The notes below the pieces were generated by a model. It saw nothing but the letters and a program-made list of their open reading frames with translations. It searched no databases and was not told where the DNA came from. A program made the translations under genes and the position numbers. A stretch of DNA of 64,000 bases from an uncultured Bacilli bacterium (GTDB taxonomy: Bacteria > Bacillota_I > Bacilli_A > RF39 > UBA660): positions 17,120 to 81,119 of the forward strand of contig CANRPT010000002.1 of NCBI GenBank assembly GCA_947632565.1, in the 5' to 3' direction. Below are positions 14,248 through 47,954 of this stretch, piece after piece. The number at the start of each line of letters is the position of its first letter. Position 1 is the first letter of the stretch.

Positions 14248-14258
14248 TTCCAAATATT

Positions 14259-17200: not shown

Positions 17201-18818
17201 TAGATTTATAAAGATGTTAGATGATCCTAATATAATATCTACTGATGCTGTTGCAGCTGTAGTTTAGTATTATAATATGGCTGCTAATTATCGTAATATG
17301 TCAGAAAAATAGGATGACGTAGAAATGATGTTAAATCTACTGAAATAGGTATCTATTCGCACTAAAAAAGAACTTAAAGGCGCAGGATCTACAAATGTAT
17401 ATAAGTAGTCTTAGTTATTAGTAGATAGATTAATGTATGGAAGGAATAAATCTCCTATATTAATGAATGCATTTGGTAAAGAATTAAATGTAGGTAAAAT
17501 GTTAGACATAGTTAGAGGGTTTGTTACAAAAGTAAATCTATCTGGTAATCTATGGTCTATTGGAACCGGATTTTTTACTGATGTAACATATATCACTTTA
17601 GAGGCTAAAATGGGAAGATTTTTTGACTTAGAAGATCTTAGGTATGCTTAGACAGAATTTTCTAGAGAATTACCAAACATGTTATCTAACATAGGTAATC
17701 CAGATCCTAAAGGTAAATTACCATATTTATTAGCTCTTAATCAAGTAGTAAAAGATAATTAGGAACTATTTGACAGATTAGATGAAAGCTAGGTATTAAG
17801 ATCTATAAATTAGAATTTTTGGTTTGCAGGATATACTCAAGCAGACTATACTGTAAAAAGTCATACTCTTATAAGTATCTATCATAATTATCGTTTCGTT
17901 AAAGGAGATGGTTTTTTATCTAAATCATAGTATATAGGTAAATATTATCCTAACGATAGAAAAAGAGGAGAAGTAAATTTCAAATAGTTAGGTGTTACTT
18001 TATATGATGCATATATAGTACAGAATAATGGAGACGTTACAGTAGATACTAAGTATAAGGACTATATTACTGAAAAATTATTAAACGACGTAAAAAATAG
18101 AATACAAATAATAAGTAAGAGAATAGACGGTACTATACGTGAAGTAGATAAAGCGTAGGTTCATGCTAATTCTATAGCATCCTATACAGTCATGCATCGT
18201 AATTTTATGGTATCTGCTTTACACGATAGATTCAAAAGAAGGTAGTTTAATTTAGATTTAGGAGTAATAGAAGAAGGGTATTATAGAGTTACAGGTAGAT
18301 TTCTACAAAATGTTATAGGAAATAGACATTTCGCTTTAACTTAGTTATTAGCCGATTATGATAACATGAAGGAGTATGAGCAATATGCTGTTCGTAGAAC
18401 TTTAAATGAATTAATGTTAATAGCAGGATCTACTACAGTTGCTGTAATACTAGCTAGTATAGTAGACGGAGATGATGATTATGATACTTGGTTGACTTAG
18501 TCCGTAACTTATCTTGCAATGAGGTCTGCTTTTGAATTTCGAACTATGTATAATCCATTTGAATTAATGTCTCTAATTAAATCTCCTACAGCAGCTTTCA
18601 ATTGGTTTGATAATGCATCTAGTTTTATTAACTTAGTTAATCCATTTGCGTATACAGGTAATAAAACGCCATTTACTATAATTGATAGAGGAGTATACAA
18701 AGGCATGCCTGTAATACTAAGAAACATTATTAAAGTAACTCCATTTAAAAGTATGTTTGAAGCTCAAGATCCAAAATCGAAACGTAATTATTTACAAAAT
18801 CAATTGATGAACTTCTAA
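14259..18818 (+). CDS. Large virion/ejected-cargo-like protein (1,519 codons), TAG read as sense; hydrophobic segment near C-terminus
   Basis: ATG at 14259. ORF-track fragments 16602, 17031, 17433 and 18519 share this frame (pos mod 3 = 0). I counted 23 in-frame TAG between 14259 and 16600 and no TAA or TGA before TAA 18816-18818. Confidence 0.7.
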
Positions 18819-24947: not shown

Positions 24948-25688
24948 TTATTCAGGTAAATAAATTTTGTCCCAATAAGTAGTAATTACATTATCTGCAT
25001 CACTTTCTGCTACTACTATATTCTTTCCTCTTAGATGAGGTGCTCTTGCTTCTCTTACAGAATTATCTCCTCCTTCAAAAGAAATATGAGTTTCATTCTT
25101 TTTTCTATATACATAGCCTACTGCATCCGCTTCACCACATATAATATTTGCAAGTTTACCTACTAAATCAAGAGACATTTCAGATAATTCTTCTCCTTCT
25201 TTATTAATCATCTTATCTTTTAAATGACCAATTAGGATTAGATTATCGCATAGTTCTTTAAACATATCTATTACTTTTCTTACAGCTTGTTGTAAATATA
25301 AGTAACCAGATCCATTTGGCAGTGTTCTAACATCAGAACCAGTATAGCCTTTCCCCATTGGAGTAGCCTTATACAATTGTACTGCAAAACTCATGCACAT
25401 TTCTTCTAATCTAGAAGCATTATCTATAGTAATATACTTATAAGGTTTCTTACCTGTTTGCTTAATTTCTTCTTTAATAGCACTAGCTATATCTCCTAAA
25501 TCCTTTACAGATCTAGCTTGTATAGCTAATGCTTCCAAAAACTCTGATCCTCCTTCTAAGTCTATAATTAGATTATTATCTAATCTAGATACTAAGGTAG
25601 TTTTACCAGCTTTTGGTTTGCCAAATAGTATTAAAAATCTAGGATTTTCTACCTTGGCTTTTATCTTTTCTTTTGGTAATACAATCAT
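24948..25688 (-). CDS. RecA-like/Sak4-like (AAA_24-type) ATPase
   Basis: Walker A FGKPKAGKTT and a hydrophobic strand LILIGHL. Size and context fit phage recombination ATPases. Confidence 0.6.
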   Translation of the reverse strand: MIVLPKEKIKAKVENPRFLILFGKPKAGKTTLVSRLDNNLIIDLEGGSEFLEALAIQARSVKDLGDIASAIKEEIKQTGKKPYKYITIDNASRLEEMCMSFAVQLYKATPMGKGYTGSDVRTLPNGSGYLYLQQAVRKVIDMFKELCDNLILIGHLKDKMINKEGEELSEMSLDLVGKLANIICGEADAVGYVYRKKNETHISFEGGDNSVREARAPHLRGKNIVVAESDADNVITTYWDKIYLPE

Positions 25689-25711
25689 AAAGCTTATTTA
25701 TGTTATATTCC

Positions 25712-25741
25712 TCTGATAAGTTTCTGATAAGTTTCTGATAT
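25712..25741. repeat. Tandem TCTGATAAGTT repeats (2.7 copies) upstream of the ATPase gene
   Basis: tctgataagtt tctgataagtt tctgatat lies 24 nt upstream of the minus-strand start at 25688. Confidence 0.6.
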
Positions 25742-25758
25742 ATGGAATAATTATTTTA

Positions 25759-29839: not shown

Positions 29840-29956
29840 TTCCCTATTTCGGATTTGAACCGACGACCTCCCCTAACATATACGAATATATAGTAATACG
29901 AATATTACATCAATATATACGAATTACAGGATGCTCTACCACTGAGCTACTAGGGA
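29840..29956 (-). tRNA. tRNA-like gene with a 51-nt insertion inside the anticodon stem
   Basis: Minus strand: TCCCTAG-TA-GCTC-AGTGGTA-GAGC-A-TCCTG-[51 nt]-TAGGG-...-GTCGG-TTCAAAT-CCGAA-ATAGGGA-A. The insert (29876-29926) holds the perfect hairpin GTAATA-TTCG-TATTAC (29893-29908) and three ATTCGTAT repeats. Confidence 0.5.
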
Positions 29957-31504: not shown

Positions 31505-32083
31505 TCAACCTTTTCTGATTTTAACAATTTTGTTGTTTAGCTTTCCGATGATCGGTAATATCCGTCCACCACCGAGATCTACACCTACGCCAATCTCAAC
31601 ATCATCGTCAAGACTGTACTCGTGTTTATACTGTTCACGTTGTTCTTCTGCATATTTTTTTGCATTTTCCTGATTGATATATTTAGAATGTAGTTCCCCG
31701 TCTGAACAATTCCTCATACTATCAAACAAAATATCTACTACGCAGTCGAAGTCACGTTCTTTTACAGCTTTATCAAGAATACTTTTAGTAATTCCGTCAA
31801 AAGCAACATCATTTCTGGATCCATTAGATCCAGTAATTGCGTCTGCTATACGAATTGATGCATCTATAATACTTACCGATTCATAAGAATTACAGCATCT
31901 TTGCCACCAAATTGGCCCACGCCCATAATAAAAATAGACGGTTCCATTCTCTTTAATTTGAACCTTTTTAGGAGTTTCAATTACAGCTCCGTTCCGAATC
32001 TGAACTTTGCTGAGAATTGTTGGCTCTGAGCAAATAAGTATTCGCAGAAGCTCTACTCTTATAGGAGAAATTCTGCTATTCAT
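31505..32083 (-). CDS. Hypothetical protein
   Basis: Intact 192-aa ORF. Composition looks G+C-richer than the replication module (by eye). Confidence 0.6.
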   Translation of the reverse strand: MNSRISPIRVELLRILICSEPTILSKVQIRNGAVIETPKKVQIKENGTVYFYYGRGPIWWQRCCNSYESVSIIDASIRIADAITGSNGSRNDVAFDGITKSILDKAVKERDFDCVVDILFDSMRNCSDGELHSKYINQENAKKYAEEQREQYKHEYSLDDDVEIGVGVDLGGGRILPIIGKLNNKIVKIRKG

Positions 32084-32090
32084 AACTTAC

Positions 32091-32738
32091 TTATCCCTGG
32101 GCTTGTTCGATAGTTACGTTTACTTCTACTTGATCTTCGTTAGTGATCCCACACTGCCGTAAGTACTCTACTTGAGCACGATCCTGTTGGTCCATAATGT
32201 TCCGGACAGTTTCTGCAAGTTGCATGTTTTTACGGGCTTGTTCCTCATAGAAATTCAGAATAGATGAGTTATGCATCTTTAAGCATGTATTCAACTGCGG
32301 AAGTTCAGAAGGACCAAAGAAAATAGGTCTTGTAGGATTTGTTGGATCGTTCGGCTTGGTTAATGTTGCAATACAGGCCATTACACTTTCTCGGGTTGCT
32401 TTCTGGAAATTCGGTTCAGCAAGATCAAATACCAGTGATGGATCCTGAGACTTCGGATTCAGAATTACCTTTGGATGACCGTCAAAGTCCTTTTCACAAA
32501 GTTCAATACCTGTAATATCAATAGGCTTGACTATAAAAATCCGGACATCCTTCCGTAATGTGTTCTTGTCATTCTGAACGTCTTCTTTCCACTTCAGATC
32601 CGGGTTGTGCGATACAATCGTATAGATCTGGCTACTAAAGTATTCTCCATACTTTTTGCAAACTTGCCGATAACGAGCCATAATAGAAGCTAACTCCGTG
32701 TTAGGAGTAACCATTTGTATTTTACTATTTTGTTCCAT
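32091..32738 (-). CDS. Hypothetical protein
   Basis: Intact 215-aa ORF. Confidence 0.6.
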   Translation of the reverse strand: MEQNSKIQMVTPNTELASIMARYRQVCKKYGEYFSSQIYTIVSHNPDLKWKEDVQNDKNTLRKDVRIFIVKPIDITGIELCEKDFDGHPKVILNPKSQDPSLVFDLAEPNFQKATRESVMACIATLTKPNDPTNPTRPIFFGPSELPQLNTCLKMHNSSILNFYEEQARKNMQLAETVRNIMDQQDRAQVEYLRQCGITNEDQVEVNVTIEQAQG

Positions 32739-34907
32739 AAAAAATGTTCCCTTCTTGATTCCGTACTTGATATACCAATACGGATCATTTTTAGTTTTTA
32801 AGTTAATAATAAGTTAATGCTCTCTACTGTTCGATTATTTTATAGTATTACAATAATGGTAATAGTGAATTCAATCACATAATCTACTAAGTATATTTGA
32901 TAATAAATGTTAATTTATTCGAAAATATCTTTTGATAAATTCTCTGATAAATTTTCTGATAATATGCTTTAACGTCCCGTTTCGACGGTTAAGATTCAAT
33001 TTTTTCGATGCTTAACGCACCCCTCACCGTTATTTTATATCGCTATTAGTTGCAATATAAAAGACACAGATCATCGACTAAGTAAGTCTACCTGGTATTT
33101 CCGTATTATCGAAATTCATAGAATTACGGTCGTTTATCTAACGTTACCAACTCATGAGCTCATTGCTTAAAGCATGACCCACTCATACCATGCATAGGAT
33201 TTGTTGTTTATAACTGCGCGAACACGAGGATTTCCACCTCTCATCGTCTCCTTGTTGCTTGATTGTTATTACGATCAAGTTAAATACTTCGTCCTTTAAT
33301 CTACCGAGACAGGGTGATAGACGACAGGTTATTAACGAATCAGCGTTCTCTTTACGTATATATTTGCGATATATACTTTATGAGTTTCTAATGTCAGCGA
33401 TAACGGTTGGCAGTCTGGGGGTGACTTATACTCCATACGGTCTGTCTTACAAATGACAATTTGCTACTTCTGTACTATCATTGGACTTCCCCAATTTCTA
33501 TGTGACTCATAGCCTTCCTACACTATGCAGTCTGATTAATAATATTAATTTATTCCCTTAGAACAGATTTAACTAGGCCGGTTCTATTCGGCATTAACTT
33601 TCAGATGCAGTAAAGTAACATCATCTGTTACAGTCCTACCTCTCTGGTTCCAGGGTTCTAAGCTGGAGCAGCTTGGCTCTTACTTGTTAATCTATTGTTT
33701 TTGACTACTACTAATATCTCCTACTCTGGAATGAGTGTGATAATCTAGTAATACACCTTTTACATATCTTGAAAGGTATAAGCTCTGCTGTTTTTTAGAA
33801 GGAGTACCAAGACTCTCCTTTGTTTATTATTTTATGTCATAATCGTACTTGCTAAAGGTACGTGACAACTAGAATCAGGGTTATTGCGCCCTCAAACCGC
33901 TTAGACATCTTTGTCTATTCATTCCTCATTCAATTATACTCACACGAACGAATAAGCACGTGAGTCACTTTAGACTTGAAAGACGGTATCAATCTCATAT
34001 ACCTCATCCCTTATACGTAAATTCTTTTGCGGCACGCTAGTTACGGTAGCGCACAGGATTGGCTCCTGCTCCCTGGTAATCAGTCGGATCATGGATCTGC
34101 ACGTAGCTTCACTCCCCGGATCATTGCATGTCCAGCCTTCATATCTTTACTTTGTATAAGTATGTACCATAACACGGTTATCCTTACATTAGTATCAGTA
34201 ATTACTCCCTTTATATTATGAACCAGTTATCATAAAAACACTAGAGTTAGCCTATTTTTCCAATCAGGACGTATAATTACGCTTTTGTATGAAGCGAGGT
34301 TGGAGCTCGCTTGTTGCGTTAGTCAGCCATAATATTATTCAATAATCCTTTTCCAAGGGATTATTCAAGAGCCCTTTGCTCTTGTTTCAGCATCGTGTTC
34401 ATATTCCTTCTTGAGTCACATCTTGATTGACGCATACGAATATAGAGATTTCGTTCTCTTTTTGAGGATTAAGGACTTTATCTTTTACAGTTTTATTTGT
34501 TTATTGCTGCGATTCAGTCTCCTCTTGTTTGAATTAATTTGTAACTAGGGTATCTTCTTGTTGCTCCTATATTACGGGTTCTTCACTATTAAATCACCAG
34601 ACGGTTCTCATATTAACAGCGCAGGCTATTCACCCTCTCCTGCTTTCTTATACCTTTTTCACCAGCATAAGTTATTATCCTACCTTTTGAGTATCTTACG
34701 GTGTTAGCCGCTACGAAGCATCTCATAACTACTTCTTACATATTCTCGGATTCTGTCTTTTTTCGGGCTATGTATAAATGAATACAAACTCCCTGACGCA
34801 GTAGTACTTAAAAACTTCCTCCTGTGACTGCCGGAGTGATTTACGCTACAGTTTTACTCCTCTCGAACTATGATATAATTATAGTATTTATATAGCGGTT
34901 ATTATCA
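32739..34907 (-). other. 2,169-nt ORF-free, hairpin-dense island (candidate large structured RNA or RNA array); strand assumed from flanking genes
   Basis: No minus-strand ORF of 60 aa or more. Sampled minus-strand frames contain TAA, TAG and TGA. Perfect hairpins at 34292-34312, 34341-34365 and 34366-34384. Looks G+C-enriched by eye. Confidence 0.45.
32897..32964. promoter_or_regulatory. Cluster of TGATAA(A/T) repeats upstream of gene 32091-32738
   Basis: tttgataataaatg (32897-), tgataaat (32933-40), ctgataaat (32944-52) and ctgataata (32956-64), with roughly 12-nt spacing. Confidence 0.4.
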
Positions 34908-35336
34908 TTAACTTTTTTCCGCTGAGGGTTTATCTTCCCCTACACTAAGTTGCTTCGGTTTTATACAGAAAATTTCTCCTGAAGATAAGTTAATATTTGC
35001 AACTATTTTCTTACCTCTGCATATATCTACTATGCCGTTTTTTATATCATTACTACTGATATAATCAACTGGATCCATTTGTCCTGGGTCAAAACCGTCC
35101 AAGCGAACACAAATCTCACTTACAGACGAACGTAAGTACTGCTCTACGAATAAGATATTCTCGCAACTAGCTTTAGCTTGTACCTGAATTAAGTTAGTAC
35201 TTTGTCCTTGCACAATAAAGTAGTTTGATTGGTCTATTACGAAATCTAAATTTCGTCTAGCTTCTTTAATGTTACGTATGATACGCGATAGACGTGCCAT
35301 ACTGTTTAACATAATGCAATTTTTCTTATTCATCAC
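34908..35336 (-). CDS. Hypothetical protein
   Basis: Intact 142-aa ORF. Confidence 0.55.
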   Translation of the reverse strand: MMNKKNCIMLNSMARLSRIIRNIKEARRNLDFVIDQSNYFIVQGQSTNLIQVQAKASCENILFVEQYLRSSVSEICVRLDGFDPGQMDPVDYISSNDIKNGIVDICRGKKIVANINLSSGEIFCIKPKQLSVGEDKPSAEKS

Positions 35337-35791: not shown

Positions 35792-37315
35792 TTAGCTTTT
35801 TTTTTCAACCTTATCCTCTTTTGGAGGAAACTCTCCTGTAGTAGGAGTAATTATGCCTTCTTCGTATTCTGCAAGACGATCCATAGGATCACGATACAGA
35901 TTAATAATCTGACCTATCTTCATACGAACTTCATCTTTAGATGGATGTTGTCCTTCTGGAAAATAGTTCTGACTTACGAGATCAAACTGCTTTTTTGCAA
36001 GTTTAAGTGCTTCTTGTTGTTCACTGTAGTCTTTATCTCCTGGTTTAGATGTTACACCGGCAGAAATAGTATTGAATAAATCATCAATATACTTTCTACC
36101 AACATTTCCAATTACTGCTTGAAGTGCTTTATCGTCAGTTGCCTTCAAATTTTCATCACTCTTAAGCTTATAACGGAAGTTTTCTTGCAACAATACCTTT
36201 AAAGTACTTGCGATCTGTTCTTCACTCCAACCACATGGTGCCATATGTTTATGTAGTAAGGAATGAGCGGAGACCGGAGAACCTTGTGCAGCAGTATATA
36301 AATACACTGTACGTCCAAGACCATTCATTAGCGGAACACTATTGATAATACGGAAGATCTCTTCAATCCACTCTGCTACAGTACGATTGTCAAGTTCAAT
36401 CTTCTTTTCCGCATTATCTTCTTTGTTAATACAGTATACACGATACCATTCAACTGTGTTAACAATATTAGTTGCGATATTGCGATCTTTACGCATAAGG
36501 TGATCTAGGACAGCAGCTAATTCTTCAAGAGAATTGATGTCCTTAGGATCAAGCGAGATAGGTTTTGCAGGAGCCTCAGCTTTGTTTTCCTTTAACTCAT
36601 CAGGAATTTTAGTATCCGGAGAATTGAAATCAATTGCTAATTGACCTTCATTCTCTTTTCCTGGAAGTGCTTTAGGTTCAGCTAAGGTAATACCAAGAGA
36701 GTCTGCAATGTCCTGCAATCGGAAGATCTGTTCAGCTGGTAGCTTACATACGAACTCACCAGCAGCAGATCGTTCTGCAAATTCATTCTTGATATCAATC
36801 ATTCCAAGCAACCACACTGCATCGATAGATCGAGCTGTATTTGCATATGATTCTGGACTTTGGTTCTTATACTCTTCATTATTAATGAATCGTTGATAAC
36901 CAACATATGCAAGCATTGCTTTCGCATCAGCAGAAGAGCGATTAGATCCAATAGGGATTCCATTTCCTATCGCTGGAATTTTACCAACTTTTTCTTCCAC
37001 TTCTGGAATTATTGTAGGAATCTTTGGACTCTTCTTTCCTTTATCAGCCGTTTGTTGGGTAGGCTTCTTTTCTTCCTTCTTCTCCTCTTTCTTAGTTTCT
37101 TTCTTAGAAACTTCCTGATTCTTTTCCTGTTTAGGGTTTGCTGCAGGTTTTGGAGCTGGTTTCTTCTCCTGGGTTGCTGAAGTATTATCAGCTACTTGCT
37201 GAGTATCCTCAGTTTTACTGTTCTCTGATTTAGCATCAGCTGATTTTTTGTCAGCTAGACTTACTTTTGCAGTTGCAACTTTTGCTGCATTTTCTCCTTT
37301 ATTTTTCTTTGACAT
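35792..37315 (-). CDS. Hypothetical protein with K/E/P-rich disordered N-terminus
   Basis: Intact 507-aa ORF. The start is preceded by the conserved 16-mer TTAAAACATTATCAAA. Confidence 0.65.
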   Translation of the reverse strand: MSKKNKGENAAKVATAKVSLADKKSADAKSENSKTEDTQQVADNTSATQEKKPAPKPAANPKQEKNQEVSKKETKKEEKKEEKKPTQQTADKGKKSPKIPTIIPEVEEKVGKIPAIGNGIPIGSNRSSADAKAMLAYVGYQRFINNEEYKNQSPESYANTARSIDAVWLLGMIDIKNEFAERSAAGEFVCKLPAEQIFRLQDIADSLGITLAEPKALPGKENEGQLAIDFNSPDTKIPDELKENKAEAPAKPISLDPKDINSLEELAAVLDHLMRKDRNIATNIVNTVEWYRVYCINKEDNAEKKIELDNRTVAEWIEEIFRIINSVPLMNGLGRTVYLYTAAQGSPVSAHSLLHKHMAPCGWSEEQIASTLKVLLQENFRYKLKSDENLKATDDKALQAVIGNVGRKYIDDLFNTISAGVTSKPGDKDYSEQQEALKLAKKQFDLVSQNYFPEGQHPSKDEVRMKIGQIINLYRDPMDRLAEYEEGIITPTTGEFPPKEDKVEKKS

Positions 37316-39908: not shown

Positions 39909-40261
39909 CCATTTAGTTTTATATCTATTAGATACTATGAGGCGACTGTCACTATTTCTAGTGCTAAAGTCTATTTCACAACCCCGTCATTAGTAACAGT
40001 TTCTCTTTAAATAAAGAGTTGTTAACTAGGATACTGCATGCTCCCCTAGGGATATATCACGCTACTAAGCGTGTATAATCCATTACATAACTTGTATTGC
40101 CAGTTATCTGCTTATTGACCTATTCTACTTCACATTGTTGCAATCAAAACCATAATACCCCGAATCTACCGTTCTAAGATTTAAGAACTTGGCGCACGGT
40201 AGAACACGATCAAATACCCTAGTTCTTTTCCTTAGTATTGCTTTGAAGCTCTAGGTGAGCG

Positions 40262-40286
40262 TGGAGTATGAGGGAGTCGAACCCTC
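40262..40286 (-). ncRNA. Orphan tRNA/tmRNA-like 3' module (T-arm plus 3' acceptor strand)
   Basis: Minus strand reads GAGGG-TTCGACT-CCCTC-ATACTCC-A. No complementary 5' acceptor strand found within about 500 nt. Confidence 0.35.
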
Positions 40287-40323
40287 GTCTTACAACTGAT
40301 TCATAGACCTAACAGTCAATTGT

Positions 40324-40353
40324 GGCTATGTAGGCGACCAAACCTACATAGCC
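40324..40353. other. Perfect 11-bp hairpin with 8-nt loop CGACCAAA
   Basis: GGCTATGTAGG-cgaccaaa-CCTACATAGCC. Its loop is related to those at 38346-38373 and 38486-38511. Confidence 0.5.
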
Positions 40354-40768
40354 TTTGGTCTTTTAAATTATTTTACTTATAAGTTTTGATAACTGATCAT
40401 TTATAGACTAGTACAGAAGTATTACTACTCAACATTTGCTATAATGTTTGCCGATTTGATATCATAAGAATGCTATTTGCATAATATACTCTTTGAGTAT
40501 AGATTCAATACTATATATTGCGCAATTATTATAATACATCCTCACGATCTTAGGCACTTGATCAGTGGCACGTTTTCTAGTCCAACTCCAGTATTGAATA
40601 GTTCTCACTATCGTACATTTGTTTGTTTCCTGTCAATTCAGGATGAAGCTGCTTATTATAGGATACCGATGTACATGGATCTCACCATTTGCTTTCAATC
40701 TTCTTCGGATTCTCTATAGAATTAATATCTCTATTATTCAAGTATCTTTCCTGGACCTTGTGTGGCTA

Positions 40769-41233
40769 TTATCTTCCGACGATTGCATCGTCATAACGCC
40801 AACTGTATCTTGCTTCCGGATACTGGTTGTCGAGTGCATTACAGGTTTCCTCATACCATTTGTCATTTTCACGCAATGCTTTTACTGCAATGTTTTTGGC
40901 TTCTGTTGCCTGTTTCTGGAACTCAGTAGTAGACAGAGTTGCATTTCCGGATTTGAGATCTTCTACCAGAGCAGTATACTTCTTTAAGTATTCTACTTTG
41001 ATATTTGCCTCTTTCTTTGTCTTTTTCATAGACAATACCATACGCTTGTGCGTATAATCAGCCTTGTTTACAATTGAAATTAACTCTTTCGTTAACTGCT
41101 CTTTCTTTGCTTCTGCAACCTTCTTTGCAGCTGCTTCTGCAATTTCAGCAGTTACTACTGCACCATTTTTGATAACATCCTCGATGTTTTCAGTAGACAG
41201 AACATCTGCTACTTTTACTTCTTCTTTTGCCAT
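40769..41233 (-). CDS. Hypothetical protein (helical, K/E/A-rich)
   Basis: Intact 154-aa ORF. The start is preceded by a variant of the conserved leader (TTAAACATTATCAAAAA). Confidence 0.6.
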   Translation of the reverse strand: MAKEEVKVADVLSTENIEDVIKNGAVVTAEIAEAAAKKVAEAKKEQLTKELISIVNKADYTHKRMVLSMKKTKKEANIKVEYLKKYTALVEDLKSGNATLSTTEFQKQATEAKNIAVKALRENDKWYEETCNALDNQYPEARYSWRYDDAIVGR

Positions 41234-41471
41234 TTTTTGATAATGTTTAAAGATTGATACTATTATTAATTAACACTAAGTTTTAAATTAAAAAAGAACT
41301 GTTCTGTATATTTATATCTCTTATTCTACAGATAACCCCTATCCTTCTCTCCCTTTATCTGTAAATCTACAGATTGCCGTTGAATAGCCGTTACATAATG
41401 ATATGTATTAGGGTTTTGGTATATTTACAGTTCTTTTGGGTTGATTGGAATCCACCATACTAACAATTTAA

Positions 41472-41624
41472 TTAGTAATATATAACAGCGGGCAGAGGCT
41501 CTGGTGGAACCTCTTGCTTGTTATTCGTTGCCATTCTGAGTTTACACTCAAGATCACATTCACTACAGTTGATAATATTATCTCGTGTAGGACATTCGTT
41601 AGAAATCGAATTTGAAGTCTTCAT
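41472..41624 (-). CDS. Small Cys-rich protein (start taken at the internal ATG)
   Basis: MKTSNSISNECPTRDNIINCSECDLECKL..., with two CxxC-like pairs. The ORF-track version (to 41654) overlaps the upstream gene more deeply. Confidence 0.4.
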   Translation of the reverse strand: MKTSNSISNECPTRDNIINCSECDLECKLRMATNNKQEVPPEPLPAVIYY

Positions 41625-42006
41625 GATTATCTCGACCAAATAAGTATTTGACAATCATAGGCTTACATATTCTTACAAATTCTTTTGCTGTATCTTTGTC
41701 TTTGAATTCCAAAGAAGTACCGACATGGGCACCAGCACGGCCAAGCGCACTGCTAGAACACAAATAGATCAAACCGGAAGGTTTTCTGTTATCTGTATAA
41801 TTCCAACCCCATACGTAATATCTTACCTCTCTTGGATCCATTGTTGTAGGTTTCCAGCCTTCATTTAAAGCTTTTGCAATGGTTTCTAACTTGATGAAAT
41901 TCCTAGTTTCATCTGTTAATTTATAGCTTTTATAATTAGCTACAGGATGAAGACCTAGTATTTTACATGCGTCTTCATAAGGTTTTTCTTTACTTAATTT
42001 AATCAT
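41599..42006 (-). CDS. Hypothetical protein
   Basis: Intact 135-aa ORF. Confidence 0.55.
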   Translation of the reverse strand: MIKLSKEKPYEDACKILGLHPVANYKSYKLTDETRNFIKLETIAKALNEGWKPTTMDPREVRYYVWGWNYTDNRKPSGLIYLCSSSALGRAGAHVGTSLEFKDKDTAKEFVRICKPMIVKYLFGRDNHEDFKFDF

Positions 42007-42102
42007 GCCTTTTTACGATTATAAGGTTCCATTTTCTTATGCTTAGGACGTTTTTTATATTCCGTCTTAGTTTTTACTTCTTTCTCCTTATCTTTTCCCA
42101 TA

Positions 42103-42588
42103 TTAAACAAGTTCTACTACGTCGTTGATTTCTTTTATATACTTACCTATATTCTCTAGATGAAAATCTTTTAGAACATTTATTACAACTGATTTGTTAG
42201 TTTTTACTCCTACTCTTTTTACTAAGTAAGTTATGACTTCTTTATGATCAGTTCTAAACGTACTGTCATTTACAAAATACTTGATAAACTCAAGTTTAAA
42301 GTCTTCATCAGTATGAAACAACATTGGATCTCCAACTGTTTCATGTATCTTATTACAGAAGGATATCAATTTGTTTTTAAATGTATCTACGCCTTTAAAT
42401 GTGTTATCATCTATATTAGGCATCATTAACTTAAGTAAATCAGTTTCATCGTATGTCTTTACATTAAGAGCATTTGCTCCTTCAGCATCTGTATTAGTAC
42501 ACACAGTAGATATGATATCTTTAATCAAATCTTCTTCATGTTTATTACTTCGGTAATTACCATTGATTAAAATTAATACTGCTTTCAT
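42103..42588 (-). CDS. Hypothetical protein
   Basis: Intact 161-aa ORF. Confidence 0.55.
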   Translation of the reverse strand: MKAVLILINGNYRSNKHEEDLIKDIISTVCTNTDAEGANALNVKTYDETDLLKLMMPNIDDNTFKGVDTFKNKLISFCNKIHETVGDPMLFHTDEDFKLEFIKYFVNDSTFRTDHKEVITYLVKRVGVKTNKSVVINVLKDFHLENIGKYIKEINDVVELV

Positions 42589-42590
42589 AA

Positions 42591-42836
42591 TTATTGATTA
42601 ATTATTGTTATTTCTATCTCATATTCATCTAACTGATTTTTAATTTCATCAGTAGATAATTCTGAGTTAATTTTAAAGTGTGGATTTAACTCCACTGTTA
42701 CACCTGGTTTGCTTCTAGCTATAGGTTTAGCTATGCTTATAGGCATTCCTAGTATGCTTTTTAATCCTAATAGGATTGCCAGAAATTGGTCACTATGCTG
42801 TGTTACAGAAGTGACATACCTCTTGTTTTTATTCAT
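42591..42836 (-). CDS. Hypothetical small protein
   Basis: Intact 81-aa ORF. Confidence 0.5.
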   Translation of the reverse strand: MNKNKRYVTSVTQHSDQFLAILLGLKSILGMPISIAKPIARSKPGVTVELNPHFKINSELSTDEIKNQLDEYEIEITIINQ

Positions 42837-43333
42837 TTTACATAGGCTTTAAATTGTTAGTTAATAAAATTGATGACGTTACTCTAGGGTATTCTAGAGT
42901 AAGAAACACATCTGTTAATGAATGATTCAAGTTATAATACCATAACTTTGAGACTAATACTAAAATGATTTCAAATGCACTTAACGCTTTGTGTTAATAA
43001 AGAAAATCAAATTTTAACATTACTTGTTAGAGTTTTATTCTATGACTCTCACATGTTTTAGGATTACTCCAGAGTACAAGCAGAAAAGGCTGTCAAACCT
43101 AATCTTATCACTCACCTGATTTTAACGTCCGCACGATCGTAGTATTTGCAATTATCAGTACTAATTAGAGCAATTGCCACCCTTCTTCTCCCGCTTAAAA
43201 ATACTACTTACGCCCCACAGGCTTGTCATCTTCTGAAGACTAACCTATTCTCACGAACTAATTAGCTATAAATTCACGTTTAACCATTAATCTTAATAAA
43301 TCTTTGTTAAATACTACTATGCATATACTTTCT
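42837..43333 (-). other. 497-nt ORF-free island
   Basis: No ORF on either strand. Contains a 9-bp hairpin TTACTCTAG-ggtatt-CTAGAGTAA near 42884-42907. Confidence 0.35.
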
Positions 43334-43783
43334 CTAACGCTTTAGAGAATCACGAGGATTCTTCACAGAATCTGTTGGGGTAATTATATCACGTTGAATA
43401 ACTGCGCCTTTAAGTATATCTTTAAAATGAGATTTGTTTGATTCATATATGGTAACTATGTCTCTATTTGACAATGATGTACCATGAGTCATTAAAATAT
43501 CAATTAAGATTGCATCTGGCATTGCTAAAAATATACTATCAATGCGCATTCCCTCTTTTACGTCTTCTCTAAATTTGAGAACTTCCTGTATAGTTAATAC
43601 AGGTTCTACTGCTTTCACAGTATCAATGCAAACTGATTCGTCTTCTGACGTAACAATTTTAGCAATAGGTTCATGACACATAAACACTATTACTCCAGTA
43701 GCGATTACAGCTGCAATAGCTACTAATAACCACCAAAATCCCTTTGATGATTTTCTTAATACTGGATATTGATTATCTTCCAT
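43334..43783 (-). CDS. Hypothetical membrane-anchored protein
   Basis: TM segment FWWLLVAIAAVIATGVIVFM. Ends in TAG. Confidence 0.55.
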   Translation of the reverse strand: MEDNQYPVLRKSSKGFWWLLVAIAAVIATGVIVFMCHEPIAKIVTSEDESVCIDTVKAVEPVLTIQEVLKFREDVKEGMRIDSIFLAMPDAILIDILMTHGTSLSNRDIVTIYESNKSHFKDILKGAVIQRDIITPTDSVKNPRDSLKR

Positions 43784-43969
43784 TTATCCCTCCGTTTCTT
43801 CGTATAATGATTGAACAACTTGGATACTTTCGGTTACTACAAATATTCTATCTGAAGCACCTATTTCAGTATTTCCGTCACATACTTCTGCGTAACAGAA
43901 TCCGTCACTAGCAATGAGAATTTCTTCTCCTGTCTCTTTGTCATGTACAATAAAACTTTTCTTTTTCAT
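43784..43969 (-). CDS. Hypothetical small protein
   Basis: 61-aa ORF. The start is preceded by the exact 16-mer TTAAAACATTATCAAA. Confidence 0.5.
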   Translation of the reverse strand: MKKKSFIVHDKETGEEILIASDGFCYAEVCDGNTEIGASDRIFVVTESIQVVQSLYEETEG

Positions 43970-43995
43970 TTTGATAATGTTTTAATAGTTAATAA

Positions 43996-44295
43996 TTATT
44001 TAATAGTATCACCAACAAAGTATACATTCATATATAAGTAATCTGTAACGTATACTTTATATTCTTGATCAGTAACTGGATTTACTAAACGAAATACATA
44101 GTCAGTTTCACTTTCTTGAAATTTATCTGAGACTATATAATGTTTATACCGTATTTGCAAATCCACAAAGTTATATGGATCTTTAGGAACATATTCTTTA
44201 AACATATAACAAATAATTATAATAGTTATAGATACTATTAATAATTTACTTATTCTGTTAAGAATATCAAAGTGACTTTTTACGCGTACTACCAT
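43996..44295 (-). CDS. Hypothetical membrane protein
   Basis: TM segment LLIVSITIIIICYMF. Confidence 0.5.
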   Translation of the reverse strand: MVVRVKSHFDILNRISKLLIVSITIIIICYMFKEYVPKDPYNFVDLQIRYKHYIVSDKFQESETDYVFRLVNPVTDQEYKVYVTDYLYMNVYFVGDTIK

Positions 44296-44376
44296 ATTAT
44301 TTATTTATTTCTTTCCATAACATAATACATTCATACACTACAACTACTACTACTACAATAGTAGCTACAATAGTTA

Positions 44377-44655
44377 TTATTGCGAACCACATTTATCACA
44401 GATTTCATTATAGATATCTTCCCAGAATTTAAAACCTTCTTTAGTATACATCCAAGGAAATGAGCATATTAGTATTCTACTTATTGGTCTAATACTAAAA
44501 AACCTAATCGCGTTATCATTATAATTTGTAGTAATTTCTCTCTTAATAATTAAGTTAGAGATATAAGAGGATAATGCATTATTTCTAATTAATGTAATTA
44601 ATAGTAAATAAGGCATATTGACTACAATAAGATGTCTTTTACTGTTTTTCTTCAT
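44377..44655 (-). CDS. Hypothetical protein
   Basis: Intact 92-aa ORF. Confidence 0.45.
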   Translation of the reverse strand: MKKNSKRHLIVVNMPYLLLITLIRNNALSSYISNLIIKREITTNYNDNAIRFFSIRPISRILICSFPWMYTKEGFKFWEDIYNEICDKCGSQ

Positions 44656-45369
44656 ATATACTTTGATTATTGATTAATACTCTTAAATAATTTAAATACA
44701 TTAGCTTCACATGCAAACTAGGAAGGTTTGTTTTTTAACATGTTACTAGACTCTATCACCACGATGAGGTTGTATTTATTGATAGAGAATACTACTACAA
44801 TACCTTATTAGCACGGATTTTACATGTAGTAGCTGGAATACGTGACATCCCTATATAATTTTTAGTTAGTAATCAAATAAAATAAAGTAAGCGCATTAAT
44901 ATAATAACTAGATATAAGATATATTAGATATCTCATTTGAAAAAGTTATTATAAGCTATGCTAAGAGCTATCTAGGATTAGGTATATAAGACATATTGAA
45001 TATCTTACTTGAAGATCTCATTTTCTCTTACTTTAAATGATACTTATTGTTCAGTTAGTATCAGACTGTCAAGCACATTATAGAGTTATCTCTATGTATT
45101 AATGTTAATACCTATTTCTCTATTACTTGCTTAGGATTGGTTACTTTCTATAAGGGTTGCACATCACAGTGAACCTAACTGTGACCCTCTTTACCACGTG
45201 GATTATTAATTATTAAATATCCAATAATTTAATGTGCATATAAATTAAGGATAAATAATAATTAATTACTTTGACTCTGCATTGTCCACCGACTTGTCAC
45301 GGCCTTCTTTGGTTGCATTAAAGTAGTAATACATGTGGAATTACACTATCTTCACAGACCGTGTAATTG
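44656..45369 (-). other. 714-nt ORF-free island
   Basis: No ORF of 60 aa or more. Local hairpins, for example CACAG-tgaacctaa-CTGTG. Confidence 0.35.
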
Positions 45370-45498
45370 TTAGTTTAATTTTTCAGAAAATCTCTTGCAT
45401 TTTACACCTATATCAGTACTTACTTCATACTGTTTGTTAATAGCTTCGTTACTGTTGATTGTTGTTGTATGTCCGTCTGACCAAATTATTGTATCCAT
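45370..45498 (-). CDS. Possible small protein (42 aa)
   Basis: MDTIIWSDGHTTTINSNEAINKQYEVSTDIGVKCKRFSEKLN. Below the ORF-track cutoff. Confidence 0.3.
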   Translation of the reverse strand: MDTIIWSDGHTTTINSNEAINKQYEVSTDIGVKCKRFSEKLN

Positions 45499-45582
45499 TT
45501 ATTCTTTTTCTTTTAAATAATAGTATATAATTATACATATTATGATTATTCCTCCTGCAAATTGTATCTGTGACCATTCCAT
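45499..45582 (-). CDS. Possible small TM peptide (27 aa)
   Basis: MEWSQIQFAGGIIIICIIIYYYLKEKE. Abuts the next small ORF. Confidence 0.3.
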   Translation of the reverse strand: MEWSQIQFAGGIIIICIIIYYYLKEKE

Positions 45583-45636
45583 ATTAATGAAAGTTTCTAT
45601 TTTAATTATGAGTTGTTATGGATAATAAAAAAGAAA

Positions 45637-45654
45637 GCCACTCCGAAGAGTGGC
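45637..45654 (-). terminator. Rho-independent terminator after gene 45664-46380
   Basis: GCCACTC-cgaa-GAGTGGC, with a T-run on the minus strand (TTTCTTTTTT). Confidence 0.6.
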
Positions 45655-45663
45655 AATCTTTTA

Positions 45664-46993: not shown

Positions 46994-47027
46994 AATTATA
47001 TAATTTGATGTTAATAATCATAATAAA

Positions 47028-47049
47028 GGGCAGCCGCTAAGGACTGCCC
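47028..47049 (-). terminator. Hairpin terminator
   Basis: GGGCAG-ccgctaagga-CTGCCC, followed on the minus strand by TTTATTAT. Confidence 0.45.
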
Positions 47050-47115
47050 AAGACTAAAGGGTTCGTAGTTTCCCAAATATCGGCAACAGAGGCTGAAATG
47101 CCCCTGTTAGCCATG

Positions 47116-47193
47116 TTACTCAAAGTCGAACCAAGAGTCTACATAATCGTAGTCTTGTTCAGTAGGTTCGAAGATACAATCAGATAATCCCAT
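47116..47193 (-). CDS. Possible 25-aa acidic peptide
   Basis: MGLSDCIFEPTEQDYDYVDSWFDFE. It is the first minus-strand ORF after the divergent region. Confidence 0.25.
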   Translation of the reverse strand: MGLSDCIFEPTEQDYDYVDSWFDFE

Positions 47194-47433
47194 AATTGTA
47201 TAAATTAAAAGTTAAACATCCAATAATAGAAATACTGAGGCTTGAATTGCCTCAGTATTCTAAATATAACTCGACAGTGTAGTCGAGATTATCTTTAAGG
47301 ACATACTTGTCAATGTAATCATGCAAACTTAATTGAGATTTACTAGATGCCCAGCTTCTGATAATGGCTTTGATGTAGATGTTCATGATTTTAAATGGTT
47401 TTAATTAATGATGGCGGGGACTTCCCGCAGTTT

Positions 47434-47455
47434 TTGGTAGGTGGGGATGACTTGC
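47434..47455. promoter_or_regulatory. Bipartite motif TTGGTAGGTG-N5-GACTTGC (copy 2)
   Basis: In the divergent intergenic region, preceded by the GC hairpin GCGGG-gactt-CCCGC. Confidence 0.45.
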
Positions 47456-47522
47456 TGTACGCCTCCTCACACGCACAACCCCTCTCTAAATTTTTATCCC
47501 CCAAAATTTTTATAATATTTTT

Positions 47523-47584
47523 TGTTAAATAATGTTAAATTTCTGTAGTTAAATAGCTTTAAACATTGTTAATAAATGTTAAAG
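47523..47584 (+). promoter_or_regulatory. Array of five (T/A)GTTAA(A/T) boxes upstream of the first plus-strand gene
   Basis: Boxes start at 47523, 47533, 47547, 47567 and 47577, mostly at spacings that are multiples of 10 nt. Confidence 0.45.
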
Positions 47585-47717
47585 GAATGGGAACCAAACG
47601 TATATATGAGACGTTATAAGGGGAGTAAGAGGGGTAGTAGTACTTACTAGTTACTGTAATCTAAAGTAAGAGTAATAGTTTTTAACTACTATCATACCTT
47701 TACTTTAATAAACACAT

Positions 47718-47954
47718 ATGGAAGATATAAAATATAGATTTATTAATTTAAATAGTATATCTACAAAAGTACACAATAAACAGATACCTAAATACTTACC
47801 TTTTAATGAAGCTTATAACTTATACCAAAGAGCTAAGCATATAGGTAGAACAGATGATGGTTGGGCTCACATTATAGAAGTAAATAATTCACATTATCAT
47901 GTTACTTTAGATAGTGGGCATGTTTATATGACAGAAATAGAAATACTAAAGTAA
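47718..47954 (+). CDS. Hypothetical protein
   Basis: 78-aa ORF. Its stop overlaps the next start. Confidence 0.55.
   Translation: MEDIKYRFINLNSISTKVHNKQIPKYLPFNEAYNLYQRAKHIGRTDDGWAHIIEVNNSHYHVTLDSGHVYMTEIEILK

Follow-up and report, generated by a model that had tools for sequence, protein, structure and literature searches.

A putative, very large structured noncoding RNA locus conserved across crAss-like phages of the family Suoliviridae

GOLLD, a very large structured noncoding RNA of phages and prophages, combines many covarying helices with one universally conserved part and one less conserved part and lies in genome regions rich in RNA genes (PMC12286853). Its members are >800 nt long, occur beside tRNA arrays in Lactobacillales, marine bacteria, and Mycobacterium, and have a pseudoknotted long-range architecture with palindromic loops that form multimers. 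ROOL, also a phage-borne ornate RNA, is without a known protein partner, occurs in gut and rumen samples, and uses multiple pseudoknots to form an octameric cage (PMC12286853). Typical of crAss-like phages are RAGATH-7, -9, and -20 and the hatchet ribozyme (for hatchet, bioRxiv 10.64898/2026.03.07.710320), each 100 to 230 nt long and each a curated Rfam family. Introns are common in delta-group crAss-like phages, which carry group I introns in core genes (PMC7886860).

Here we describe a tract on the minus strand of a crAss-like phage (positions 32739 to 34907 of the 64,000-nt stretch of DNA that was analyzed, referred to here as the window) that we judge, from comparison of related sequences, to be a new, family-wide, very large structured noncoding RNA locus. 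It shares with GOLLD a wealth of covarying helices, the division into universally conserved and less conserved parts, and a genome region rich in RNA genes: RAGATH-7, -9, and -20, the hatchet ribozyme, and a tmRNA-like gene are found by Rfam models in the same genome and on the same strand, with the RAGATH/hatchet island in the same early/middle block 6 to 10 kb upstream. The tract is ~2.3 times longer than GOLLD, however, and is flanked by protein genes; the nearest tRNA-like gene (29840 to 29956, the only one that Rfam at the gathering threshold found in the window) lies 2.8 kb downstream, and the tRNA-island location of GOLLD and ROOL is thus not seen here. At ~580 nt, ROOL is also much shorter than the tract. 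No pseudoknotted long-range architecture was detected in the tract and no covarying palindromic loops were noticed in it by eye, and it occurs in crAss-like phages of gut Bacteroidota. ARAGORN found no tRNA in the window and no tRNA or tmRNA in the tract, and a tRNA or tmRNA array was rejected on these grounds.

A first, sequence-only reading of this DNA had proposed a cmscan search against Rfam. With permissive filters, all 4,227 families of Rfam 15, and both strands of positions 32400 to 35300, this search yielded no family match at an E value of ≤10, the sole match within that limit being a 19-bit frameshift site that we attribute to chance. The models without a match in the tract thus include those for GOLLD (with its conserved 3′ region and pseudoknots), ROOL, the RAGATH RNAs, rRNA, tmRNA, 6S, and SRP. 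At the gathering threshold, a search of the window placed nothing inside the tract. Three Oafivirinae-like phages, searched over their homologous gaps at an E value of ≤0.05, likewise matched no family, ROOL included. The analogy to GOLLD and ROOL is one of kind and not of homology. We found no description of the tract in the literature on noncoding or structured RNA, RAGATH, GOLLD, and ROOL in crAss-like phages, Suoliviridae, or Crassvirales; Yutin et al. 2021 speak of ORF-poor regions and stop-rich stretches in a general way, without reference to this tract.

The longest ORF within the tract is 40 aa on the minus (gene) strand and 65 aa on the plus strand, in agreement with the earlier statement that the strand of the flanking genes holds no ORF of ≥60 aa. 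Also correct was the claim that no stop reassignment makes the tract coding: TAA, TAG, and TGA are all frequent in its six frames, and when TAA, TAG, or TGA is read as sense, at most 132 codons are opened. The result is informative, since three further large gaps of the window (979 to 2840, 13732 to 16601, and 16884 to 18518) do open fully when TAG is read as sense, as it is in late genes of the same phage. Stop reassignment opened no frame in the homologous gaps of other subfamilies either. Substitutions in the tract show no codon periodicity (P = 0.72; the flanking genes gave 1e-17 and 6e-33) and amount to 1.13 per nt versus 1.8 and 2.5 in the flanks; the tract evolves more slowly than the genes beside it.

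These observations bear on the idea that a decayed gene lies here, or one masked by recoding, by frameshifts, or by a self-splicing intron that lacks an ORF and connects the flanking ORFs. TAG recoding in late genes, the introns of delta-group phages, and the antisense ORFs annotated here in some records all speak for such a gene, and in being long, structured, free of ORFs, and set within a block of phage genes, the tract does resemble a group I or II intron. The antisense ORFs of those records are not conserved, however, and the ORFs on either side are unrelated to each other and complete, since in all relatives each has a stop and a start of its own. Models of group I and II introns gave no match at an E value of ≤10 in the tract or ≤0.05 in three relatives. 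Of group II features, neither domain V/VI, the D1 to D4 models, nor a 5′ GUGYG inside a host gene was found; of group I features, there was neither a P3 to P9 core nor an insertion in a conserved gene, and no gene is split. The tract also lacks an intron-encoded protein. Moreover, it is ORF free in every relative across five subfamilies and thus not the result of a recent loss. Decayed genes, one of the alternatives listed in the sequence-only reading, are therefore excluded by the ORF-free relatives and the missing codon periodicity, and an ORF-less group I or II intron found no support; we regard the probability of any decayed or hidden gene as negligible.

The case that the tract differs from chance rests on comparative evidence and not on single-sequence features. 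The shift toward G+C that had been seen by eye is real (36.5% in the tract and 32.3% in the window, with a peak of 44.7% at 33850 to 34149), but the neighboring coding stretch at 31900 to 32650 also reaches 40 to 41%, so that G+C content is by itself no mark of the tract. The tract has 5 perfect hairpins of ≥7 bp, against 0.9 ± 0.9 in dinucleotide shuffles; since 2.17-kb tiles elsewhere in this genome carry 1 to 7 of them, the "hairpin-dense island" stands out from shuffled sequence but not from its surroundings. Nor is the genome uniformly tightly packed, as had been assumed: it has several other ORF-free gaps of 0.7 to 1 kb, some of which contain Rfam RNAs. Single-sequence thermodynamics does not set the tract apart, the mean folding-energy z score (150-nt windows) being −0.5 inside and −1.2 outside in flanking coding sequence. 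Folding energy no better than that of shuffled sequence had been named beforehand as an outcome that would count against a structured RNA, and it is what we found; this criterion is weak and is outweighed by covariation. The only internal repeat or duplication in the tract is a 12-nt repeat (2.5 copies) at the 3′ end, and the conserved 5′-end string AAATACTATAATTATA does not recur elsewhere.

All five subfamilies of Suoliviridae, in human, pig, macaque, and lemur samples, have a syntenic ORF-free gap of 1.9 to 2.5 kb. It measures 2,015 to 2,181 nt between anchors in 23 Loutivirinae representatives and is retained in 30 further diverse representatives. Between Loutivirinae genera, the RNA is 75 to 91% identical, whereas the adjacent 507-aa protein is only 39 to 47% identical; between subfamilies, the neighboring proteins are 22% identical or undetectable. 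Two universal cores (~34870 to 34595 and ~33500 to 33205) were nevertheless recovered by profile searches in four of the five subfamilies, and both retain helices between subfamilies through compensatory changes. The Uncouvirinae gap is recognized by synteny only, no sequence similarity to the tract having been detected in it. Among 185,579 species genomes, there were eight matches, all of them ~100-kb phage contigs misbinned into metagenome-assembled genomes of unrelated taxa, and no cellular homologue; these matches give no clue to the host. The tract is phage specific.

Alignment of the homologous regions revealed strong base pair covariation. RNAalifold proposed 407 pairs, of which 94.5% of cells were canonical (86.1% in shuffles and 36 to 43% with slid partners) and 884 cells were compensatory (293 ± 15 in shuffles). 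A structure-blind scan of 85 sequences found 19 covarying helices with spans of 6 to 60 nt and 5 with spans of 60 to 250 nt, compared to 1 in each class in a parallel-orientation control. For spans of >250 nt, there was no excess (7 versus 4). RNAalifold had also proposed long-range helices, among them a 13-bp helix (34251 to 34236 with 32832 to 32819) closing a 1.4-kb domain, which has mismatches in relatives and would span a promoter-like repeat; these long-range helices were dropped because the structure-blind scan performed no better than its control at such distances.

Watson-Crick covariation alone fits RNA hairpins and extruded DNA hairpins alike, and with iteron-like direct repeats and an inverted repeat at its 3′ end, the tract could in principle be a DNA-level element, that is, a replication origin, a packaging site, or a set of DNA hairpins serving, as they do in phage N4, as promoters for a virion RNA polymerase. 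The strands are not equivalent, however. When G-U pairs were allowed on the gene-sense strand, 20 supported helices (102 bp) were recovered, and when they were allowed on the antisense strand, 11 (55 bp), an asymmetry unexpected for duplex DNA, and the consensus folding energies were −485 and −442, respectively. Cumulative GC skew runs straight across the tract with no turning point, the tract is enriched in G+C rather than AT rich except in its last 250 nt, and internal loops, a pseudoknot, and a closed 200-nt domain are features of RNA architecture. A DNA-level element is thus very unlikely, and the replication or packaging cis-element suggested earlier is disfavored by the G-U asymmetry. 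With coding signal absent and compensatory pairs well above controls, the tract is, with high probability, a functional structured RNA locus that acts as RNA rather than as a protein gene or a DNA site. The main proposal of the sequence-only reading, an unusually long structured RNA locus that may be without precedent in a phage, is supported by the ORF-free relatives, the covariation, conservation above that of the flanks, and the lack of an Rfam family.

The RNA structure starts inside the upstream ORF. An H-type pseudoknot (34870 to 34923, minus strand, as are all features below) straddles the stop codon (34910 to 34908) of the upstream 142-aa ORF, with S1 pairing 34923 to 34919 with 34898 to 34894 and S2 pairing 34908 to 34903 with 34875 to 34870. 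All 165 cells are standard pairs (17 to 58% are paired in slid controls), both sides have changed in 8 of the 11 pairs (a result matched in 0 of 500 shuffles), and the structure-blind scan found the pseudoknot as well. Universal core 1, the 5′ domain (34595 to 34872), is supported by nhmmer matches and cross-subfamily covariation. Its invariant strings are GUUCGAGAGGAG (Loutivirinae only), CCGAGAAUAUGU (34749 to 34738), CAAAAGGUAGGAU (34689 to 34677), and GAGAACCGUCUGG (34609 to 34597); a helix AUCC/GGAU joins 34751 to 34748 with 34680 to 34677, and several hairpins covary. An nhmmer search with a Loutivirinae profile recovered core 1 in Oafivirinae-like phages with E values down to 5e-23, in Bearivirinae with 1e-26, and in Boorivirinae with 2e-21 and 4e-11. 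In the cross-subfamily alignment, 92.2% of cells were paired (71.0 ± 1.4% in shuffles), and 93 cells were compensatory (29 ± 5 in shuffles; reached in 0 of 500).

Downstream of core 1 lies a cluster of short hairpins with invariant loops (34260 to 34458), which includes GGAACGAAAUCC (34458 to 34445). The back-to-back hairpins that had been flagged from the single sequence, 34384 to 34366, 34365 to 34341, and ~34312 to 34292 (loop CUCCAAC), belong to this cluster and are indeed present, their stems being kept by compensatory changes; stems in the cluster have two to five such pairs each. The central block (33836 to 34201) is the part most conserved within Loutivirinae, at ~90% identity between genera, and its conservation is not detectable in the other subfamilies. 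It contains GGAGCAGGAGCCAAUCCUGUGC, AUAUGAGAUUGAU, the GAGGGCGCNAUAACCCUGA hairpin (33893 to 33875), the CCUUUAGCAAG loop (33858 to 33848), and covarying stems at 34052 to 34034, 34003 to 33985, 33955 to 33915, and 33862 to 33844; in a pattern scan, at least 120 viral contigs matched its pattern TGAGGGCGCNATAACCCTGA. Next comes a variable mosaic module (33440 to 33820), alternative versions of which are swapped between otherwise nearly identical phages: cr56_1 (NC_055890, 12566 to 14713) and the window are 98 to 100% identical on either side of the module and 47 to 69% identical inside it. Hairpins at 33670 to 33645, 33592 to 33577, and 33586 to 33559 covary within the module.

Universal core 2 (33205 to 33500) is closed by a helix GACUG/CGCAGU (33415 to 33411 with 33218 to 33213), in which pairing is kept through C-G to G-C (four Oafivirinae-like phages), G-C to A-U (two Loutivirinae), and C-G to U-A (cr6_1) changes. 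It contains GGGAAGUCCAAUG (33491 to 33479), GACUGCCAACCG (33415 to 33404), AGAACGCUGA (33349 to 33340), a covarying hairpin at 33376 to 33356, and the GGUGGAAAUCC hairpin (33238 to 33228), and 13 of its 17 predicted pairs show compensatory changes. E values in nhmmer went down to 2e-11 in Oafivirinae-like phages, 6e-20 in Bearivirinae, and 1e-8 in Boorivirinae. One core 2 string, GGAAGUCC, recalls CR-I of RNase P, which we take to be a resemblance only, as no RNase P model matched the tract at an E value of ≤10. The 3′ hairpin domain (32973 to 33187), conserved between Loutivirinae genera, has hairpins at 33187 to 33153, 33143 to 33131, 33062 to 33033 (11 bp), 33021 to 33007, and 32988 to 32973, with two to seven covarying pairs per stem, and is probably the 3′ part of the structured RNA.

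Beyond this point, an AT-rich stretch holds three tandem copies of TTATCA(G/A)A(G/A) with a period of 12 (32930 to 32962). The same triple repeat (TATCAGAAAC TTATCAGAAAC TTATCAGAG) occurs 20 to 45 nt upstream of the start of the ORF at 24948 to 25688. We read it as promoter- or operator-like; the structured RNA probably ends here and gives way to the control region of the downstream gene. A 25-mer, UAGUAGAUUAUGUGAUUGAAUUCAC (32865 to 32889), with the inverted repeat GUGA-N6-UCAC, is unique in the window, is nearly invariant among 24 Loutivirinae representatives, and is a candidate operator or RNA hairpin. Finally, 21 nt separate an 11-bp hairpin, UCCGUAUUGGUAUAUCAAGUACGGA (32760 to 32784), from the ATG (32738) of the 215-aa ORF downstream. 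Sequence conservation of this hairpin extends across subfamilies (the Oafivirinae consensus in the same place is ATCGTT.G...AATCAA..ACG); it is mostly invariant and showed no covariation. The profile also matched the 3′ end of the tract in cr6_1. The last 230 nt (32962 to 32739), with the triple repeat, the operator-like palindrome, and the pre-start hairpin, may form a separate control region for the downstream gene.

The two ends of the tract raise the question of whether it is a giant cis-acting untranslated region (the 3′ untranslated region of the upstream operon or the leader of the 215-aa gene) that has no function in trans and that would time or gate downstream genes through transcription pausing, processing, RNA stability, or translational coupling. 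Ribosomes that terminate at the upstream stop codon must remodel the 5′ pseudoknot, which overlaps this codon, and the conserved hairpin before the downstream start codon would also suit such a role. The tract always lies between the same two gene sets, is co-oriented with both neighbors, and has no detectable promoter or terminator of its own, a scan for both being at chance level. On the other hand, 2 kb of RNA with >20 maintained helices and many invariant loops far exceeds what any known bacterial or phage leader needs, a start of its own for the downstream gene is suggested by the promoter-like repeat that separates it from the structured part, and the tract is better conserved than the genes that it would regulate. 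We consider a purely cis-acting role improbable.

We propose instead that the tract is cotranscribed with the early/middle genes that lie upstream of it on the minus strand and that the transcript folds over ~1.95 kb (~34923 to 32973) into mostly local, independently stable hairpin domains, as the covariation shows. Cores 1 and 2 would carry the conserved function, and the ~1 kb between them would be a lineage-specific periphery that has been partly exchanged by recombination. The invariant A-rich loops on covarying stems may be surfaces by which the RNA contacts a protein partner or packs in tertiary or quaternary fashion. Such domains and loops would point to a large RNA or RNP scaffold that acts in trans during infection, as phage-borne GOLLD and ROOL may do. 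For the proposal as a whole, a Suoliviridae-wide structured noncoding RNA locus that serves as a trans-acting scaffold and is followed by a separate 3′ control region, we see the chances as evenly balanced.

Since no covarying helix spans >250 nt, one 2-kb RNA is indistinguishable from a fixed tandem of modules, and an array of separate structured RNAs (e.g., core 1, the hairpin cluster, the central block, core 2, and the 3′ domain), cotranscribed and then cut apart much like the upstream RAGATH/hatchet island, is a possible though not a favored reading; an array of hairpin RNAs was also among the alternatives of the sequence-only reading. It would account for the purely local (≤250-nt) helices with covariation support, for the ~1 kb of subfamily-specific sequence between the universal cores, and for a module swapped by recombination with its neighbors undisturbed, and the small-RNA island of the same genome does contain a self-cleaving ribozyme. 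Promoters, terminators, and known self-cleaving ribozymes are, however, absent from the interior of the tract; the subfamilies share the order, the spacing, and the total length (2.0 to 2.5 kb); and no module was seen to be lost, duplicated, or moved. The missing long-range covariation is, in addition, weak evidence, because candidate long-range partners are nearly invariant. The stronger version of our proposal, that 34923 to 32973 is one ~2-kb, Suoliviridae-wide RNA forming a higher-order RNA or RNP particle needed in infection, is offered only tentatively; such a particle might, for example, capture ribosomes or translation factors during the switch to TAG-recoded late genes.

The neighboring proteins name no partner. 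Five flanking proteins had no match in Pfam, PHROGs, or PDB, and the only Pfam/PHROGs match among the neighbors was an ECF-type sigma factor three genes upstream. Sequence searches of PDB gave no match for the 215-aa protein and only nonsignificant ones (E value of ≥0.065) for the 507-aa protein. The latter has 114 homologues, of which a single one carries Pfam domains, as a weak partial match; its AlphaFold model (pLDDT of 65), with a disordered K/E-rich N terminus followed by an all-alpha domain, had no fold match.

The locus takes up 2% of each of these genomes, evolves more slowly than the adjoining proteins, and has no Rfam counterpart. Were it one RNA, it would be the largest structured noncoding RNA known in a phage or bacterium apart from ribosomal and intron RNAs, would extend the size range of natural nonribosomal structured RNAs more than 2-fold, and would be an obvious target for cryo-electron microscopy after GOLLD, ROOL, and OLE. 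Few such phages are known to have been cultured. The tract offers a concrete handle on the early/middle biology of Suoliviridae, which PMC7886860 describes as the largest crAss-like group of the human gut virome. The combination of CCGAGAATATGT, 22 to 52 nt, and CAAAAGGTAGGAT provides a conserved nucleotide marker for the family. In every deposited annotation examined, the tract was either blank or filled with spurious ORFs.

The window derives from a crAss-like phage belonging to the Loutivirinae, a subfamily of the Suoliviridae (delta group), and its nearest record is cr56_1 (Buchavirus), which is 91% identical over the ORF-free tract at 32739-34907. Genes around the tract lie on the minus strand. 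The sequence-only reading had denied the tract any coding capacity, and this was borne out: the longest minus-strand ORF was 40 aa, TAA, TAG, and TGA were all frequent in all six frames, and any single stop reassignment yielded at most 132 codons. The test was able to detect recoding, since reading TAG as sense turned three other apparent ORF gaps under the standard code (979-2840, 13732-16601, and 16884-18518, plus strand) each into one ORF of 545 to 787 codons; the tract failed it. The late genes at 1-24 kb, on the plus strand, require TAG as sense, and in this phage TAG recoding affects late genes only. In cr7_1 (NC_055895), the CDS annotated at 10043-10651, just downstream of the homologous gap, has an in-frame stop codon, which suggests that recoding there may not be limited to late genes. 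In the two flanking ORFs, substitutions across eight aligned genomes concentrated at the third codon position (P = 1e-17 and 6e-33), whereas those in the tract were even over the three codon phases (P = 0.72); the flanks had 1.8 and 2.5 differences per nucleotide, compared with 1.13 in the tract. Identity between Loutivirinae genera was 75 to 91% for the tract and 39 to 47% for the neighboring 507-aa protein. Judged by these substitution patterns, the tract is neither coding nor decaying, and a hidden or decayed gene has a negligible chance of being the explanation.

All 23 of 23 Loutivirinae representatives, drawn from at least 120 IMG/VR contigs matching one 19-base loop motif, had a gap of 2015 to 2181 nt between fixed anchors. 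Tracing through neighboring genes in GenBank located the gap in other subfamilies as well: Oafivirinae (cr7_1, cr272_1 from pig, and cr131_1 from macaque), Boorivirinae (cr10_1 and cr1_1), Bearivirinae (cr6_1), and Uncouvirinae (cr118_1), together with Dulem virus 42 (lemur), which is unclassified below class in GenBank. The family-wide gene order is a sigma factor, a small ORF, an ORF of ~470 to 570 aa, an ORF of ~130 to 190 aa, the ORF-free gap of 1.9 to 2.5 kb, and two ORFs of ~170 to 210 aa. Recoding opened no frame in the gaps of these other Suoliviridae records, whose deposited annotation is either blank or made up of short or antisense ORFs without conservation. A two-anchor pattern run over 185,579 species genomes matched only eight contigs, mostly ~100 kb and mis-binned into unrelated MAGs; by this search, the element is confined to phages.

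Single-sequence measures do not make the tract exceptional. The G+C shift noted earlier by eye was present but modest (36.5% versus 32.3% for the window, with a peak of 44.7%), and a neighboring gene reaches 41%. Three hairpins named in the sequence-only reading were found in place, but hairpin density did not serve as the marker it had been taken for: the tract has 5 perfect hairpins (0.9 ± 0.9 in dinucleotide shuffles), and other genome tiles have 1 to 7. Folding-energy z-scores were no better inside the tract (mean, -0.5) than outside (mean, -1.2).

Base pairing was then assessed from alignments. RNAalifold, run on 24 Loutivirinae representatives, placed 407 pairs. In this structure, 94.5% of cells held standard pairs, compared with 86.1 ± 0.2% in column shuffles and 36 to 43% with slid partners; both partners changed in 152 pairs (shuffles, 102 ± 4; slid, 32 to 40), and there were 884 compensatory cells (shuffles, 293 ± 15; slid, 69 to 117), a result that upholds the earlier proposal of structured RNA. 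Because the structure came from the same alignment as its counts, we added a structure-blind scan of 85 distinct sequences for antiparallel runs, each ≥4 columns long, ≥93% paired, and with ≥2 covarying pairs, using the same scan in parallel orientation as the control. It returned 19 runs versus 1 in the control at spans of 6 to 60 nt, 5 versus 1 at 60 to 250 nt, and 7 versus 4 beyond 250 nt; a second scan agreed.

A DNA profile built from the Loutivirinae alignment and searched against other subfamilies matched two collinear blocks, core 1 (~34870-34595) and core 2 (~33500-33205). The respective E-values were down to 5e-23 and 2e-11 in Oafivirinae-like sequences, 1e-26 and 6e-20 in Bearivirinae, and, within Boorivirinae, 2e-21 and 1e-8 in cr1_1 and 4e-11 and 4e-4 in cr10_1; in Uncouvirinae the profile had no match. 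The ~1 kb between the cores is conserved inside subfamilies but not across them, and on this evidence two domains of the tract are universal and its middle is variable. Within this middle part, segment 33820-33440 is mosaic: cr56_1 is 47 to 69% identical to the window within it and 98 to 100% identical on both sides, a confined drop that indicates recent recombinational exchange of one RNA module between phages. Across subfamilies, core 1 was 92.2% paired (71.0 ± 1.4% in shuffles) and held 93 compensatory cells (29 ± 5), with 0 of 500 shuffles as high. Its helix AUCC/GGAU connects the two most conserved strings, and pairing is maintained through a change of U-A to C-G in one phage and of C-G to U-A in another. 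In core 2, 13 of 17 pairs showed compensatory change across subfamilies; in the closing helix GACUG/CGCAGU (33415-33411 with 33218-33213, minus strand), C-G became G-C in 4/4 Oafivirinae-like sequences, G-C became A-U in two Loutivirinae, and C-G became U-A in cr6_1. At the 5' end, an H-type pseudoknot of two helices (34923-34919 with 34898-34894 and 34908-34903 with 34875-34870, minus strand) pairs in every cell and covaries in 8 of 11 pairs. Its second stem begins at the stop codon (34910-34908) of the upstream ORF; the structure begins inside that ORF, which suggests that the two are co-transcribed.

Consensus energy favored the gene-sense strand (-485 versus -442 kcal/mol), and supported helices, with G-U allowed and a 97% threshold, numbered 20 (102 bp) in sense and 11 (55 bp) in antisense. 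This is moderate evidence that the RNA is read from the minus strand. The G-U asymmetry also counts against a role as duplex DNA, and we consider a DNA element very improbable. A promoter/terminator scan of the tract gave no candidate that stood out. On the 3' side, the structured part ends near 32973 and is followed by an AT-rich stretch that contains, on the minus strand, a triple repeat TTATCA(G/A)A(G/A) (32962-32930). Beyond this stretch lie an almost invariant 25-mer (32889-32865) containing an inverted repeat and an 11-bp hairpin (32784-32760) 21 nt before the next start codon. The triple direct repeat, TTATCAGA(A/G) (period, 11 to 12 nt), occurs at two places, 32930-32962 and 25711-25745 (minus strand), the latter preceding the start of ORF 24948-25688 by 20 to 45 nt, and is a candidate phage promoter or operator/regulator site. 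An RNAalifold helix spanning these 3' elements (34251-34236 with 32832-32819) was not accepted, because it is mismatched in relatives and lacks covariation. That the tract is purely a cis-acting giant UTR strikes us as improbable, if less so than a DNA element.

In the cmscan comparison proposed earlier, Rfam 15 (4227 families) gave no match in the tract at an E value of ≤10 and none at ≤0.05 in three distant homologues. At other places in the window and in relatives, the same searches readily found RAGATH-7, -9, and -20, hatchet, and a tmRNA-like gene; GOLLD, ROOL, an intron, RNase P, rRNA, and a RAGATH family are therefore excluded as the identity of the tract. It contains no tRNAs and no internal repeats. 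For crAss-like phages, recoding, introns, and regions poor in ORFs have been described (Yutin et al. 2021, PMC7886860), but this element is absent from that account, and full-text literature searches found no description of it. GOLLD and ROOL are phage-borne, lie near tRNA islands, have no known function, and assemble as 14-mer and octameric cages, respectively; GOLLD members exceed 800 nt and are conserved in the 3' region and variable in the 5' region (Kretsch et al. 2025, PMC12286853). The tract belongs with these to a recognized kind, large structured RNAs of phages without an assigned function, and has no homology to any described family. It differs from the described families in length (more than twice that of the largest), in its apparent architecture of local domains with two cores, and in its host phage group.

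The flanking proteins offer no functional clue. The third gene upstream encodes an ECF-type sigma factor, and the five flanking proteins had no family and no PDB relative. The 507-aa protein (35792-37315, minus strand), conserved at the second gene position upstream of the RNA in examined relatives from all five subfamilies, had no Pfam, PHROG, PDB-sequence, or fold match; its residues 1-125 are K/E-rich and predicted to be disordered, and the remainder is modeled as an all-alpha domain (pLDDT, 80 to 90).

On comparative grounds, the tract is noncoding, strongly conserved, and present throughout the family, and RNA-type base pairing on the gene-sense strand constrains its sequence; we are confident of its identity as a functional structured RNA locus. 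The fuller account, in which the locus would be transcribed together with the upstream genes and would serve as a large trans-acting RNA or RNP scaffold, we hold to be an even call. That the tract would form one molecule, a single giant RNA, is a tentative reading within that account; its main rival, a fixed tandem of separate RNAs, we hold just as tentatively.

Elsewhere on the minus strand, a known small-RNA island (40546-45324) holds the Rfam matches RAGATH-20 (40546-40643), RAGATH-9 (41292-41448), hatchet ribozyme (43114-43240), and RAGATH-7 (45038-45266), with a weak type-P1 twister (45269-45324; 27.6 bits, below gathering) immediately 5' of RAGATH-7. Three further ORF-free gaps of 0.7 to 1 kb (46994-47953, 42589-43333, and 44656-45663) were not rescued by recoding; two hold Rfam RNAs, each filling less than a quarter of its gap, and 46994-47953 carries no annotation whatever. 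ARAGORN placed a permuted tmRNA-like gene at 39966-40351 (minus strand; tag peptide GNTSYVMDYTRLVA), which scored 32 bits with Rfam tmRNA_permuted, under the 47-bit cutoff; its homologue in cr7_1 (3510-3745) scored 66 bits, above it, and RefSeq annotates a tmRNA in cr7_1, cr131_1, and cr10_1. A 117-nt tRNA-like gene (29840-29956, minus strand; Rfam tRNA, 33.8 bits), missed by ARAGORN, carries ~45 nt of inserted sequence following the anticodon-arm region; it may be a tRNA with an intron and is possibly the suppressor needed for TAG recoding.
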